From the NCBI GenBank assembly GCA_046155815.1, contig JBJXFY010000210.1, positions 1-39,688 of the forward strand: 39,688 nucleotides of DNA. Reading direction: 5' to 3'. The notes under the pieces were generated by a model that was given only the letters and a program-made list of their open reading frames with translations, had not been told where the DNA came from and did not search any database. The DNA is from Limisphaerales bacterium (GTDB lineage: Bacteria; Verrucomicrobiota; Verrucomicrobiia; Limisphaerales; CAIMTB01). Shown here in pieces: positions 12,386 to 17,441 of this stretch. The translations under genes and the position numbers were made by a program. Each line of letters starts with the position of its first letter. The stretch's first letter is position 1.

Positions 12386-12769
12386 ATGCGGCGCGCCGCC
12401 CAGTGGACCGTGGCGATGGTGCTGGCCCTTTCCTTGGGCCTGCACTGGGCCGTGCTCCAGACGGCCGCGTGGGCGGGCATGCTGGCCTCCTATTCCCGCC
12501 AGACCTCCTTCGCCGAGGCCGTCGCGTGGACCTTCGACGGCCAGCACCCCTGCCGCGTCTGCAAACTGGTCGAGGCCGGCCGATCCGCCGGCGGGGAGCA
12601 GCCGCTCGCGCCGGTGCGAACCTTCAAGCTCGATCCGGCCACGCCGGCTTCCGCAGCCACCGAAGCCATGGTCCCGGCCACCGAGCCGGAAGCCGGTTCC
12701 TTCCCGTGGCCGGCCGTCTGGACCGCCCGCACCGAGACTCCGCCCGTCCCGCCGCCCCGTTTCGCCTGA
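12386..12769 (+). CDS. DUF2946/CruR-like small membrane-targeted protein (putative metal-sensing leader ORF)
   Basis: N-terminal hydrophobic segment (VLALSLGLHWAVLQTAAWAGML), TFDGQHPCRVC CxxC motif, flexible linker, C-terminal ARTETPPVPPPRFA. Confidence 0.7.
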   Translation: MRRAAQWTVAMVLALSLGLHWAVLQTAAWAGMLASYSRQTSFAEAVAWTFDGQHPCRVCKLVEAGRSAGGEQPLAPVRTFKLDPATPASAATEAMVPATEPEAGSFPWPAVWTARTETPPVPPPRFA

Positions 12770-12772
12770 CCC

Positions 12773-12979
12773 GCCGCGCCGCCTTGGCGGCGCGGCCCTT
12801 CCCCCCGGCCGGCCGCGCCTGCGGCCGGTGATGTCAGGTTCCGAAACCCGCCGCCGCACTTCGGCGGCATCCGTCCGCAATCCCAGTCCCTTCGTATCCG
12901 AAAAGGCCGGCGCGCGCAGGTCATGGCGCTGCCCGTTCCGGCCTTCGCCCCCGCCGCCGCATCGGCGATGCGGTGGCGG
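12773..12979 (+). promoter_or_regulatory. Highly structured intergenic leader with five hairpins
   Basis: Stems at 12773-12796, 12809-12828, 12850-12868, 12903-12945 and 12951-12979; none has a U-tract. Confidence 0.5.
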
Positions 12980-12996
12980 ATGAAATCTCAGCCGCC

Positions 12997-13908
12997 ATGT
13001 CAACCCGAACCACCATGTCCATCCTCCTGAACTCACCCCCCGTCGCCTCCCATCCCTTCCCGTGCCACGTCGCGCGCCGCCTGCCGGCGGTGCTGACGGC
13101 GCTGCTCCTGCTCGCCGGCCGGGCCGGCGCGCACGACACCTTGCTGACCAACGTCCCCATGCAGGGGCCCATGATCCACGTGGGCTTCGAGTACCACGCG
13201 GCGCACCAGGCGCTGCATGTCCACCTCGACCCCGGCGTGCCCGCGCTGACTCCCCTCGCCCTCAGCCATCCGGACGCGATGTTCGCGGCGGACGCCCCGT
13301 GGCGCGCCTACCTGGACCCGCACACGCTCGGCTGGGCCTTCAACCGCCAGTACGGTTTCGTCGTGGGCGGCGATTCGGACCCGCTGCCGGCGGGGAGCGC
13401 GATCTGGATCCGCCAGATCTCCGCTACGCCCGGCCTGCAGGTCTTCCGCTACCGGCCGGCTGGTCCCGCGACGTGGGCGCCGATGTTCGGCTCGGACGGC
13501 TCGACGAACGTCTTCGAGTGGAGCCTGACCATGTTCCATCCCGCGTACGCCTGCCCGCCCGACGGCGGCCCGCACGAGGCCGCATATGAGGCGTTCCTGG
13601 TGAATCCGGCCACGGGCGAGCCGGTGGCCGGCGTCGTGCCGGCCGCGTTCACGCTGAAGTGGACGGTGGCCGGACAGGCCACCGGTCCCGAGCTGGCCAT
13701 CGCGCACAAGGTTGCCCTCACCTGGGCAGCCGACGGCACGAACCACGTCGTCCAGTGGTCGCCGGCCGCCACGGGCGCGCCGTGGACCACGCTGACGAAC
13801 ACGCCGGGCGTGCTCGACGGCCGGCTCACGATCCTGGTCGCGCCGGACAAGGAGGCCGGGTTCTTCCGGCTCGCGCCCATGGACGGCGGGCATCACCGCG
13901 GCCACTGA
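12997..13908 (+). CDS. Exported His/Met-rich putative metal-binding protein with C-terminal FFRL domain
   Basis: Signal peptide ending [33 protein letters not shown]; tail [17 protein letters not shown]. Start may be 12997 or 13015. Confidence 0.7.
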
Positions 13909-14626: not shown

Positions 14627-14704
14627 ACCATCCGCCGGTCTCGTTACCGGCGTCCGCCCCGCTCCGTCCGACGTACCTTCCCAAACTTGGACCTATCACT
14701 GCCC

Positions 14705-16474
14705 ATGAATCCGAAGCTTCTGCCCGCCCTGGCCGCCGTCCTGCTGGCCGGCCCCGCATGGGGTCGCGGCCTTGAACTCACCGTCAACTCCGTCGGCAAC
14801 GACAACACGCCCGACGCCCGCCTCACCTTGGTCGAGGCGCTCCTGCTGGCCAGCGATTCCCTCGGCCGGCCCGTGTCCGCCGGCGAGTCGGCCCTCATCC
14901 TCGAGGACATCTCCGGCGAGGAGCTGGAGATCCGCTTCGCCGTTCCGGGCGCCGGGCCGCACTTCATCGCCGCGCCGCCGGGTGGCTTTCCGCCACTGGT
15001 CACGCTGGACTTCACGCGGACGCTGATCGACGGCTACTCCCAGCCCGGCACCCTGCCGAACACCGGGCCGGTAGGGGGCACGAACAACGCCGTGCTCAAG
15101 CTGGTGCTCGACTGCCGCGTGCTCGCCGCCGACCCGGTCACGGGCGAGACGCCGGACTATTCCCTGCGCCTCGTCGGCCCGGACATCCATGTCCGCGGCT
15201 TCTCGGTCCTCGCCAGTCAGGACTCGCCGAACTACGGCGTGTACTTCAGCGACGGCGCGGCCGGCGGGCAGGTGAGCGGCTGCTGGTTCGGCCTCTCGCC
15301 GGACCAGACGATCCTCTCCGGCGGCGAGGTCGCCATCGCGGCCTACGGCACGGAGGGCGGGCACGTCTTCGGCTCGGACGGCAACGGCGTGGACGACCTG
15401 GCCGAGGTCAACGTCATCGTCGCCCAGGCCATCGGCGGGCAGTTCGAGGACACCAAGGACATCCATGTGCAGGACAACCTCATCGGCGTGCTGCCGGACG
15501 GGAGGACGCTGCCGCCGGAGGACATCCGCGACGCGCTCGAGGGCGACGCCGTGGAGGGCGCGGGCCTCGCCGGCACGATCACGCTGCGACGGAACGTCAT
15601 CGGCGGGATGCGCGGCGATGTGGTGGAGTTCTACGGTCCGGCGGAACGGCTCGTCATCCAAGGCAACTGGATCGGCGTCGCCGCCGACGGCGTCACCCCG
15701 CTGCCCAACGGCAACTTCCTCCGCGTGCAGGCCGTGCAGGCCGTCGTCGGCGCGGAGGCGGACGCGCCCACGGGCTCCGCGCTGTCCAACCGCATCCACA
15801 ACCATTCCGGCTACCTCTTCCGCCACACGCGGCCGGACACGCGGATCGAGCACCGCGGAAATCATCTTGTCGGCAACACCGGGCCGTACTTCGAGCTGCT
15901 GGAGAACTCCCTCGCCGGCCTGCGCCTCGGCCGCGACACGGATCTCGCGCCCGTGCTCGCGACGAACTCCACGCGCCAGCTCCTGCGCGGCACCGTGCTG
16001 CTCAGCGGTCCCGGCACGAACGGCCTCACCGCCGCCGTCGTGGACGTGCACCTCGCCGAGCCGGGGCCGGCCCCGGAGCATCCGGTCATCGGCCTGCGCC
16101 TCGCGACGTTCCTCGAAGGTGGCCTGGCGGACCTGGATCCGCTGCCCGGCGCGTTCGCCTTCGACCTGACGGACGTGGCGGGAATCAACTTGGCCGCGCA
16201 CCTCGTCGTGACGAGCACGCTCAGCGAAGATTCGGGCACGGACACCTCGCCCTTCTCGAACCTGCTGGCGCTCCCGCCCGAAGCCCCCAGCCTCGCCATC
16301 GCTCGTGACGGCGACGAAGTCGTGCTGACCTGGAGCGATCCGGCTTACGGCGCGCAGTTCCTCTTCGGCAACCTCGCCGACCCGAACGGCTGGTCGGACA
16401 TCCCCGGCGATTCGCCCCGGCGCGCGCCGCTGTCACTCAGCCAGGCCGCGTTCTTCCGGCTGAAGAAGCGGTGA
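14705..16474 (+). CDS. Large exported protein, probable parallel beta-helix, with C-terminal FFRL domain
   Basis: Signal peptide MNPKLLPALAAVLLAGPAWG; LTVNSVGND..LTLVEAL; IDGYSQPG..PN; repeated GCWFG/DNLIG/RNVIG/GNWIGVAADG; TSPFS; tail AAFFRLKKR. Confidence 0.75.
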   Translation: MNPKLLPALAAVLLAGPAWGRGLELTVNSVGNDNTPDARLTLVEALLLASDSLGRPVSAGESALILEDISGEELEIRFAVPGAGPHFIAAPPGGFPPLVTLDFTRTLIDGYSQPGTLPNTGPVGGTNNAVLKLVLDCRVLAADPVTGETPDYSLRLVGPDIHVRGFSVLASQDSPNYGVYFSDGAAGGQVSGCWFGLSPDQTILSGGEVAIAAYGTEGGHVFGSDGNGVDDLAEVNVIVAQAIGGQFEDTKDIHVQDNLIGVLPDGRTLPPEDIRDALEGDAVEGAGLAGTITLRRNVIGGMRGDVVEFYGPAERLVIQGNWIGVAADGVTPLPNGNFLRVQAVQAVVGAEADAPTGSALSNRIHNHSGYLFRHTRPDTRIEHRGNHLVGNTGPYFELLENSLAGLRLGRDTDLAPVLATNSTRQLLRGTVLLSGPGTNGLTAAVVDVHLAEPGPAPEHPVIGLRLATFLEGGLADLDPLPGAFAFDLTDVAGINLAAHLVVTSTLSEDSGTDTSPFSNLLALPPEAPSLAIARDGDEVVLTWSDPAYGAQFLFGNLADPNGWSDIPGDSPRRAPLSLSQAAFFRLKKR

Positions 16475-16538
16475 GTTCCCGGAGCGCCGGCCATACAAGC
16501 CGTTTGGCTTTTCACTGGAGACCCCGCAGCGTGCCGTC

Positions 16539-17441
16539 GTGATCTGGAAGGCGCTGATGATCGCGGCGGCCTTGGGCCGTCCGGCCGTCGTCATGGCCGC
16601 GGAGCCGGGGGCCCCACGGGCGCTGGACGTGCCCGAACTGGAGGTTCCCTTCCAGGTCACGGACCGCATTTTTTCGGGCGGCCTGCCCGAGGGCGACGCC
16701 GCCTTCGCCGCGCTCCAGAAGCTCGGCGTGAAGACGATCATCTCCGTGGACGGCACCAAGCCGGAAGTCGAACGCGCCGCGAGGTACGGGCTCCGCTACA
16801 TCCACCTGCCGCACGGCTACGACGGCATCCCCACGAACACGGCCGCCCGCCTCGTGAAGGCGGCGCAGACGGCCGACGGGCCGATCTACCTGCACTGCCA
16901 TCACGGCCGGCACCGCGGCCCGGCGGCGGTCGGGCTGATCGCCCAGGCCACCGCGGGCTGGACCACGAACCAGGCCGTCGCGTGGCTCCGGCAGGCCGGC
17001 ACGTCCGCGGACTACGCCGGGTTGTTCCGCGACAACGTGAACTTCCGCCCGCCCGCGCCGGAGTTCCTCGCCTCGCTGGGCACGAACTTCACGTCGCGCG
17101 CGGAAGTGTCCGGTCTCGTGGAAGGCATGGTCGAGGTGGACCGGCGCTGGGAGCACTTGAAGGAAATCCAGCAGGCCGGCTGGCGGGCGCCGGCGAAACA
17201 TCCCGACCTTGTGCCGGCCACCGAGGCCCTGCTGCTCCAGGAGGCGTACCGCGAACTGCTGCGCGTGCCGGAGTCCGCGGAGCGGGGCGACGACTTCCTC
17301 GCGCTGCTGCGGCAGGCCGGGGCGGAGGCGGAGGAACTGCACGCCGCGCTCAAGGCCGGCGGCGATCCCGCGCGGGTCGAGGCCGCCGCCCGCGCCGTCG
17401 GCCGGAGCTGCTCGGCGTGCCACCGGCGGTTCAGGAACTGA
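16539..17441 (+). CDS. Fusion of a Cys-phosphatase/sulfurtransferase-like (CX5R) domain and a C-terminal cytochrome c'-like haem domain
   Basis: LGVKTIISVDG, YIHLP, PIYLHCHHGRHRG P-loop; helical C-terminal half ending SCSACHRRFRN (CxxCH). Confidence 0.8.
   Translation: MIWKALMIAAALGRPAVVMAAEPGAPRALDVPELEVPFQVTDRIFSGGLPEGDAAFAALQKLGVKTIISVDGTKPEVERAARYGLRYIHLPHGYDGIPTNTAARLVKAAQTADGPIYLHCHHGRHRGPAAVGLIAQATAGWTTNQAVAWLRQAGTSADYAGLFRDNVNFRPPAPEFLASLGTNFTSRAEVSGLVEGMVEVDRRWEHLKEIQQAGWRAPAKHPDLVPATEALLLQEAYRELLRVPESAERGDDFLALLRQAGAEAEELHAALKAGGDPARVEAAARAVGRSCSACHRRFRN

Follow-up and report, generated by a model that had tools for sequence, protein, structure and literature searches.

The sensing of metals by nascent exported leader proteins was described between 2022 and 2025 for CruR and CutF, almost only in Proteobacteria and Bacteroidota. 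In CruR (Bp2923) of Bordetella pertussis, a CXXC motif and a RAPP motif lie 45 residues apart, a spacing that is kept within 1-2 residues, and the gene is followed by a structured intergenic region of 162 nt; operons of the CruR family encode TonB-dependent transporters, PepSY_TM proteins and Sco-type chaperones (PMC9426467). CutF of Rhodobacter capsulatus is described as a nascent sensor whose export is co-translational; it has a signal peptide and a CxxxC motif and stalls at a PPP close to its C-terminus. A short intergenic region follows, with a stem-loop before the next gene that shields cutO's Shine-Dalgarno (SD) sequence (PMC9973294; 10.1101/2025.02.05.636593). The first of these reports defines CutF-like proteins as shorter than 150 aa, with PP among the 15 C-terminal residues, an N-terminal export signal and, on the same strand, a downstream gene within 1000 nt; CusA, CusB and CusF are frequent neighbours in their clusters, and some clusters are linked to Ni/Co genes (PMC9973294). 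Verrucomicrobiota are not mentioned in the main text of that report.

The present analysis concerns a run of five genes, P0001 to P0005, in DNA of a Limisphaerales bacterium, a member of the Verrucomicrobiota. The whole stretch of contig JBJXFY010000210.1 that was analysed, 39,688 nt long and with a G+C content of 72%, is called the window, and all positions are those of the window. The first gene, P0001, looks like a leader of the CruR/CutF type, an analogy of architecture and genomic role and not of sequence family. The locus is probably an operon headed by a metal-sensing upstream open reading frame (ORF) of this type, most likely one that responds to copper; this reading is given a rough probability of 0.6. 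The conserved core of the locus consists of three genes (P0001, P0002 and P0003), not five. The genes and the motifs in them are as follows.

12386-12769, plus strand: P0001, a leader-like ORF of 127 aa
12545-12562, plus strand: HPCRVC of P0001, a putative metal-sensing His + CxxC motif, read from the sequence
12740-12760, plus strand: PPVPPPR of P0001, a putative polyproline ribosome-arrest motif, two residues ahead of the stop
12770-12996, plus strand: intergenic region between the leader and P0002, 227 nt, predicted to be highly structured
12997-13908, plus strand: P0002, an exported two-domain beta-sandwich protein; alternative GTG start at 12973
13919-14626, plus strand: P0003, a prepilin-type protein of 235 aa with a divergent DUF1559-type globular domain
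From 13985, plus strand: prepilin GFTLIE motif of P0003, read from the sequence
14705-16474, plus strand: P0004, an exported right-handed parallel beta-helix protein; alternative TTG start at 14687
16539-17441, plus strand: P0005, an exported protein tyrosine phosphatase (PTP)/DUF442-like domain fused to a cytochrome c'-like domain
16896-16916, plus strand: CX5R of P0005 (residues 120-126)
17409-17423, plus strand: CSACH of P0005 (residues 291-295)

The gaps between successive genes, from P0001 to P0005, are 227, 10, 78 and 64 nt. The five co-oriented genes with short gaps behind the leader, which the initial annotation of this DNA had reported from the letters alone, were thus found again, and the CxxC, polyproline, prepilin and CxxCH motifs that it had named were located as HPCRVC, PPVPPPR, GFTLIE and CSACH. 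Third-position GC is 0.86-0.93 in all five frames, which fits a genome of 72% GC, and the five ORFs therefore look like real genes. The statement that all the products are exported or membrane-targeted holds to the extent that each N-terminus has a basic residue followed by a hydrophobic stretch, the export signals of all five being judged by eye. As also stated, no TonB-dependent receptor is encoded among the five genes, and literature searches, largely at the level of listings, turned up no description of the combination as a known system.

P0001 begins with MRRAAQ followed by about 30 hydrophobic residues (by eye) and ends in PPVPPPRFA. An alignment of its homologs (A2) divides the protein into a basic/hydrophobic anchor containing LGLHWAVLQxxAWxGM, the motif TFDGxHPCxxC, a weakly conserved spacer, and the C-terminal PPxPPPR. 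The invariant residues are W21, L24, Q25, W29, M32, T49, F50, D51, G52, H54, P55, C56, C59, P119, P124 and R125; all 36 of 36 aligned homologs keep H54, P55, C56 and C59, and at least 90% of them keep H20. In a family set of 265 proteins the Cys motif is present in 241, and 233 of these also carry a terminal P-x-P-[RKL]. The distance between the second Cys and the terminal motif is 58-60 residues in 193 of the 233 and 56-63 residues in 229, and in 217 no more than 1-8 residues follow the terminal motif. A word-indexed search gave 132 homologs, and a profile search gave 2984 cluster representatives at E<=0.001. When 301 sampled Verrucomicrobiota genomes were surveyed with the A2 profile, the family was found in 69 genomes and in 45 of 149 genera, mostly in 1-3 copies. 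P0001 matched no model in Pfam (E<=1) or NCBIfam. Judged from its sequences, this is a new and large Verrucomicrobiota family of predicted leaders with its own motif set and spacing.

P0001 shares with CruR its place as a small first gene of what looks like an operon, a CXXC, a putative proline arrest motif near the stop, a spacing between these motifs that hardly varies, and behind them an intergenic region that is long and G+C-rich; by eye, its N-terminus also resembles an export signal or N-in/C-out anchor. The CXXC and the fixed spacing to the C-terminal motif, here 58-60 residues, recur across the P0001 family, some members of which stand first in apparent operons with copper-related cargo. 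The differences are as clear: no homology to CruR is detectable, the terminal motif is PPxPPPR instead of RAPP, the spacing is 58-60 residues instead of 45, and the intergenic region is 227 nt instead of 162 nt. Moreover, the Cys motif is set within TFDGxHPCxxC, the hydrophobic segment is highly conserved, and the cargo in the window consists of a pseudopilin pair in place of a TonB-dependent transporter. With respect to the CutF-like definition, P0001 is under 150 aa with PP in its last 15 residues, and P0002 lies on the same strand 227 nt away, inside the 1000-nt limit. P0001 differs from CutF in having CxxC and not CxxxC and in an intergenic region that is about 200 nt and not short; a shielding stem-loop is a conjecture here.

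The genes behind other members of the leader family point to the same type of role. Forty leader loci, each with 6 kb downstream, were picked by hand from 80 listed matches. In 15 of the 40 the next same-strand gene encodes a TonB-dependent receptor (8 by Pfam and 7 by BLAST to three of those), and in 7 it encodes an outer-membrane barrel of the Phenol_MetA_deg type (Pfam assigned 2 of these and BLAST 5). The P0002-P0003 pair takes this place in another 7 loci and TonB in 2; the remaining 9 have other or unassigned products. Seven receptors were tested against TIGR01778, the equivalog for TonB-dependent copper receptors: one passed (693.9 bits against a cut-off of 472.45) and the other six are generic TonB-dependent receptors. 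One receptor is followed by PepSY_TM, as in cruR-bfrG-bp2921. TonB-dependent receptors, PepSY_TM and Sco-type genes are found behind the P0001 family as they are behind the CruR family, and the P0002-P0003 pair sits in the slot that is held elsewhere by an outer-membrane importer. The receptor, barrel and TonB cargo argues for a CruR/CutF-like genomic role of the P0001 family. In three loci of the 40 (L159, L185 and L160; relatives' loci are labelled L, and genomes of the window's bacterial family G), the leader is followed by proteins of 335-342 aa that match nothing in Pfam or NCBIfam; the mature part of one of them starts with CDLCGCY.

The second line of evidence is the conservation of the first three genes. 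A search of species-representative genomes with a profile of the P0002 family (alignment A1) gave 114 confirmed loci, and the counts for the three-gene unit, or trio, refer to the best 80 of these 114, which are from Verrucomicrobiota throughout, bar a few mislabelled bins. P0001, P0002 and P0003 occur in one order and on one strand in 74 of the 80. The six exceptions are four contigs that end within 360 nt of P0002, one contig that starts 352 nt before a fused gene, and L090, where an additional pseudopilin gene lies between the leader and P0002. Of the 80 loci, 2 have P0004 next to the trio and 2 have P0005 within 6 kb of it. The synteny in relatives on which the initial annotation had staked its five-gene system is therefore present for genes 1-3 and nearly absent for genes 4 and 5, and a conserved system of five finds no support. 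In five genomes of the window's bacterial family, too, the homologs of P0002, P0004 and P0005 lie on different contigs, bar P0004-P0002 fusions, and the core is taken to be three genes. The cargo of the leader is new: an unannotated Met/His beta-sandwich protein together with a dedicated DUF1559-type pseudopilin. Second tandem cassettes are seen in L079, L090, L106 and L114, in the order leader', pseudopilin', P0002-like gene, the pseudopilins having 36-41% identity to P0003; in L114 the leader occurs three times in a stretch of 9 kb.

Copper-related genes accumulate around the trio. The neighbours of the 80 loci were clustered, cluster representatives were annotated with Pfam, and the loci were then scored by BLAST with those representatives. 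The families identified in this way include CusF-SCO1 fusions, SCO1, HMA proteins, HMBD-CusB, CusA and NikR. With a copper-type gene defined as HMA, SCO1, CusF-SCO, CusB or CusA within 7 kb of the trio, at least one such gene is present in 28 of the 80 loci and none in a small control of 16 loci (235 kb) from the same bacterial family, which supports the copper-related setting that had been proposed. By family, SCO1/CusF-SCO is found in 13 of the 80 loci, HMA in 11, CusA in 11 and CusB in 7. In 13 loci SCO1 and/or CusF-SCO lies directly downstream of P0003 in the same orientation, HMA preceding it in 9 of these, and in 5 loci the trio is followed by CusB-CusA. CusA, CusB and CusF are thus neighbours both of CutF-like genes and of the trio.

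P0002 contains 17 His in 303 aa (5.6%). It had been called a His-rich exported protein, and so it is in this genome; His-richness and the C-terminal HHRGH are, however, confined to a close subgroup, and the family-wide signature is Met/His (PMQGxM ... MFHP). The residues of the N-domain that are invariant in A1 include P62-M63-x-G65-x-M67 and M187-F188-H189-P190, plus W110 and W183. Invariant sets of Met, Met, Met and His resemble the ligand sets of Cu(I). Ninety-five homologs were found, all of them unnamed or from Verrucomicrobiota. P0002 matches no Pfam or NCBIfam model, and a PDB sequence search with profile A1 gave no match at E<=1. The structure model (predicted local distance difference test, pLDDT, 86.9) has two beta-sandwich domains, the C-terminal one being about 70 aa long and ending in FFRL. 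The Greek-key-like beta-sandwich of the N-domain recalls periplasmic Met/His copper proteins and cupredoxins (CusF, CopC-type proteins, multicopper oxidase), but there is no sequence or profile match to cupredoxins or CusF, and the structural scores are within the range of chance arrangements. Foldseek against the PDB returned only Fab light chains, with template modelling (TM) scores of 0.14 or less normalised by query length.

The models in the Atlas that are nearest to P0002 are Planctomycetota proteins with PEP-CTERM or dockerin tails (TM 0.79 and 0.78). In four aligned homologs the C-terminal domain is replaced by a short hydrophobic tail, one of them being named PEP-CTERM in its source, which suggests a sorting role for the domain. 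P0002 (residues ~240-303; 13690-13900) and P0004 (~530-595; 16290-16471) both end in a beta-sandwich of about 70 aa with a finish of the FFRL/FYRM type, and in related genomes many other large ORFs have ends that match this piece. When the two C-terminal domains were compared by pairwise BLAST, the match was not significant (E 0.11). In these Verrucomicrobiota the piece may serve to sort proteins to the cell surface or to attach them there.

P0003 was correctly described as a pseudopilin. It scores above the cut-offs of N_methyl (PF07963, 30.1 bits against 21.2), TIGR02532 (30.5 against 16.3) and DUF1559 (PF07596, 39.2 against 23.3), the last match covering only residues 49-105 of the protein and positions 2-61 of the 268 in the model. 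With a profile of its orthologs (A3), solved pilins and GspG are matched at positions 2-59, which is the N-terminal helix only. The protein shares with DUF1559 prepilin-type proteins and GspG the cleavage/methylation motif, the N-terminal helix and, near the C-terminus, an H-x9-DG pattern. It departs from DUF1559 in its shorter length (235 aa), in matching the 268-position model over residues 49-105 alone, in conserved blocks of its own, which include DDYxGxPxTWR and ADHxMxHFW, and in its metal-type leader. The residues invariant in A3 are H65, D157, H158, R176, H177, D187 and H189, and they include an H-x9-DG-H pattern. The same genome encodes a prepilin peptidase and three secretins at other places, and about 14 more of its proteins score above the DUF1559 cut-off. 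Literature listings gave no report of a metal-type leader with any DUF1559 protein, and searches on DUF1559, DUF2946, H-X9-DG and a copper pseudopilin of Verrucomicrobia found, mostly in listings, no description of the leader + pseudopilin arrangement.

P0002 and P0003 may bind metal and may cooperate. A complex prediction with P0003, P0002 (residues 53-311) and P0001 gave a score of 0.00 in a run without controls and counts neither way. A bolder proposal is that P0002 and P0003 form a pilin-based device for copper trafficking, in which the pseudopilin with its invariant His/Asp cluster and the Met/His beta-sandwich protein, sorted to the surface, would together capture copper there, pass it across the envelope to Sco, CusF and HMA proteins, and stand in functionally for the TonB-dependent copper receptor that this leader family controls in sister lineages; this is a speculative extension that we consider improbable.

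For the operon as a whole, a mechanism of the CruR/CutF type is proposed on the strength of the anatomy of the leader and the gene context. P0001 would be anchored N-in/C-out, so that HPCxxC reaches the periplasmic side while the ribosome is translating PPVPPPR about 60 residues later. Metal bound to nascent P0001 would alter the duration of the polyproline ribosome pause, and the pause would open or close the structured 227-nt RNA, either by shielding the ribosome binding site (RBS) as in CutF or through Rho access as in CruR, thereby setting downstream expression. P0002 and P0003 would then act as a copper-handling module of the cell envelope, for capture, sequestration or hand-over to Sco/CusF/Cus partners, which in this lineage the beta-helix surface protein P0004 would have joined.

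The RNA between leader and cargo is compatible with such a switch in the window. The segment 12765-13000 has a predicted folding energy of -123.6 kcal/mol, which compared with 200 shuffles corresponds to z = -3.45. Hairpins are predicted at 12773-12796 (10 G-C-rich pairs, beginning 4 nt past the leader stop), at 12808-12829, and at 12950-12978 (13 pairs, ending 19 nt before the P0002 ATG). In relatives the distance from leader to P0002 has a median of about 211 nt (56 loci, with P0002 start codons picked by a heuristic). The C-over-G skew expected of Rho-utilisation-like sequences is nothing special: its median is 0.08, and the coding sequence on either side has 0.12 and 0.08. No Rfam family reached its gathering score anywhere in the window.

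Several observations weigh against this reading. The first group concerns the RNA and the sampling. Across 53 homologous intergenic regions the median z is -0.98, with z < -2 in 15 and not in the other 38; many loci have a hairpin just past the leader stop, but with no shared position or sequence. Structured intergenic RNA across relatives is thus a tendency, and one of predictions only. The 40 leader loci in which receptors and barrels were counted are a non-random sample. The fold search with P0002 is non-diagnostic: the best Z is 6.2 and none reaches 8, and the cupredoxin rows (24 of 50, Z 4.6-5.6) are tied, for the N-domain, with pilin, MSP and immunoglobulin-like (Ig-like) rows.

The second group concerns the kinship of the leader. 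The DUF2946 model of Pfam was matched by 0 of 36 P0001 family members at E<=1. A six-frame search of the bacterium's own genome with it found nothing at the locus, the best score elsewhere being 16.5 bits against a cut-off of 23.7. An hhalign comparison of A2 with five DUF2946-like proteins of the phylum, one of them over the Pfam cut-off, gave a probability of 2.3% over 12 columns around H-x-C-x-x-C. In the phylum sample canonical DUF2946 scores above the cut-off in 2 of 151 genomes. The Pfam and own-genome searches speak against P0001 as a DUF2946 member at the sequence level; the template alignment behind the hhalign value, with its five sequences, is small. The proposal of a DUF2946-type (CruR/CutF) leader accordingly keeps its architecture and genomic role and loses the family name.

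The third group concerns the leader as a protein. Its hydrophobic segment, with W21, L24, Q25, W29 and M32 invariant, is conserved far beyond ordinary signal peptides, in keeping with a stable membrane protein that has its own function. P0001 might then be a membrane-anchored subunit, either a Cu/thiol-binding adaptor or a TonB-like tether, that partners the next envelope protein. Such a subunit would account for the invariant polar and aromatic residues in the transmembrane segment (W21, Q25, W29 and M32, with H20 in at least 90%), and the membrane-embedded N-terminal helix of the pseudopilin could pair with the anchor; leader and pseudopilin also recur as pairs in the second cassettes of L079, L090, L106 and L114. 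Pro-rich periplasmic tails resemble the spacers of TonB-type proteins. A tether is nevertheless hard to square with a spacer of variable sequence and fixed length and with a polyproline motif 1-8 residues from the stop, which is a pattern typical of arrest peptides (PMC9426467). The partners downstream of the P0001 family are structurally unrelated to one another. Strong conservation of P0001 needs no stable product either, since CruR and CutF are reported to be undetectable as proteins in vivo (PMC9426467; PMC9973294). A stable subunit is therefore held to be unlikely, and the metal-sensing leader is preferred.

The last group concerns the metal. There is no copper-type gene within 7 kb in 52 of the 80 trio loci, and 6 loci (L063, L064, L067, L089, L093 and L113) have a NikR gene no more than 3.3 kb from the trio, so that copper is no more than the likeliest metal. 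In three of these six NikR is directly upstream on the same strand, and the NikR neighbours raise the question of nickel or dual-metal control. The copper neighbours themselves are mixed, with efflux (CusBA) in some loci and chaperones or uptake-type genes in others, so that either sign of regulation is possible. A metal other than copper (nickel, cobalt or zinc) might therefore be what is sensed or handled. Apart from NikR in 6 of 80 loci, this would suit the ABC ATPases nearby in 8 of 80 and the six of seven tested receptors that are generic, and some CutF-like clusters are tied to Ni/Co genes (PMC9973294). Against it stand the copper-specific neighbours (CusF, SCO1, HMBD-CusB and HMA), which are far commoner at 28 of 80, and the one receptor that belongs to the copper-receptor equivalog (TIGR01778). 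Met/His signatures suit Cu(I). The class of Cys-containing motifs is the copper-linked class (PMC9973294). Another metal is accordingly judged quite improbable, and copper is retained as the most likely ligand of the leader.

The two remaining genes of the run bear on the extent of the module. P0004 had been read as a beta-helix protein, and its fold is backed by structure: the model (pLDDT 80.9; predicted TM score, pTM, 0.78) is a right-handed parallel beta-helix followed by two C-terminal FN3/Ig-like domains. At E<=0.001 Foldseek returned 30 matches; 8wm1_A ranks first (E 5.7e-10), and behind it come phage tailspikes, AlgE4, an alginate lyase and tandem FN3 domains. P0004 falls in no Pfam family. 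The two loci in which it adjoins the trio (L088, in genome G013, and L111, in G012) belong to the window's own bacterial family, and in both it is fused to P0002. In G013 a single ORF of 814 aa encodes both a P0004-type beta-helix (55% identity) and, in frame, a P0002-type domain, and the P0003 ortholog comes next. In G012 the gene behind a P0001-type leader is a fusion of 529 aa, made of the N-terminal part of P0004 and a P0002 domain; P0003, HMA, SCO and CusF-SCO come after it. G005 has a P0004 ortholog of 69% identity away from the trio. The in-frame fusions speak for P0004 and P0002 working together in this lineage, and from these sequences P0004 appears to be a lineage-specific addition to the module. 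Distant homologs of P0004 (about 30% identity, open frames of about 1000 aa) have a prepilin/DUF1559-type gene within ~1.1 kb downstream on the same strand in 8 of 16 loci (L022, L025, L029, L031, L032, L034, L035 and L036, all from relatives of the window's family); beta-helix protein and pseudopilin may be a recurrent pair in their own right.

P0005 had been described as a phosphatase-cytochrome c fusion. The cytochrome half stands, with a match to Cytochrom_C_2 (cytochrome c', PF01322) at 34.9 bits against a cut-off of 26.5 over residues 249-299. The phosphatase-like half falls under the cut-off of every PTP-type family (best 21.2 against 27), yet CX5R is present. Among 8000 candidates scored, 1534 are homologs at E<=0.001, and one source labels them as DUF442 family. 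The P0005-type family is very large and apparently uncharacterised, and the joining of an exported CX5R domain with a haem-binding four-helix domain is unusual.

All five genes could still form one dedicated system in which the phosphatase-cytochrome c' protein supplies redox chemistry. The genes lie on one strand with gaps of 10, 78 and 64 nt behind the leader and with no terminator-like site detected between them; a consensus scan of 12000-17700 gave no promoter-like site and a single terminator-like one, which is on the minus strand and not above shuffles. The presence of P0005 near the trio in 2 of 80 loci (L056 and L100) is slightly above chance for a single-copy gene. On the other side, P0005 comes from a very common family, lies on the opposite strand in L056, is on another contig than P0002 in G005, G013 and G003, and is present in G001, where no full-length P0002 was found; in 4 of 4 relatives that have P0005 it is thus located on other contigs. 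A dedicated system of five is thus rated as very doubtful. P0005 is probably a passenger or neighbour gene, and only adjacency ties it to the module.

The run is flanked on both sides by genes on the opposite strand, for an Opp-type ABC solute-binding protein (10560-12242) and for an SPFH/HTH protein (17468-18676). Beyond the latter, at 18717-19778 on the minus strand, there is an ORF of 353 aa that matches nothing in Pfam at E<=1e-5; its other neighbour is a gene for a BamB-like PQQ-repeat protein.

The P0001 family would extend the logic of CruR and CutF with other motifs and another spacing, unseen by the DUF2946 model, and would offer a natural comparison for the tuning of spacer length. 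If the bolder proposal of a pilin-based device is true, this family of ~3000 sequence clusters would be another class of transmembrane metal sensors that stall ribosomes, recognisable in its own right. The trio gives a first clue from genomic context to the function of a subfamily of DUF1559-type pseudopilins and of an unannotated exported family, both tied to copper homeostasis genes. A cultured Limisphaera carries the trio (L084), and the predictions are therefore directly testable. On the bolder proposal, at least part of the huge, unexplained expansion of DUF1559 proteins in the Planctomycetota-Verrucomicrobiota would serve the trafficking of metals or nutrients.

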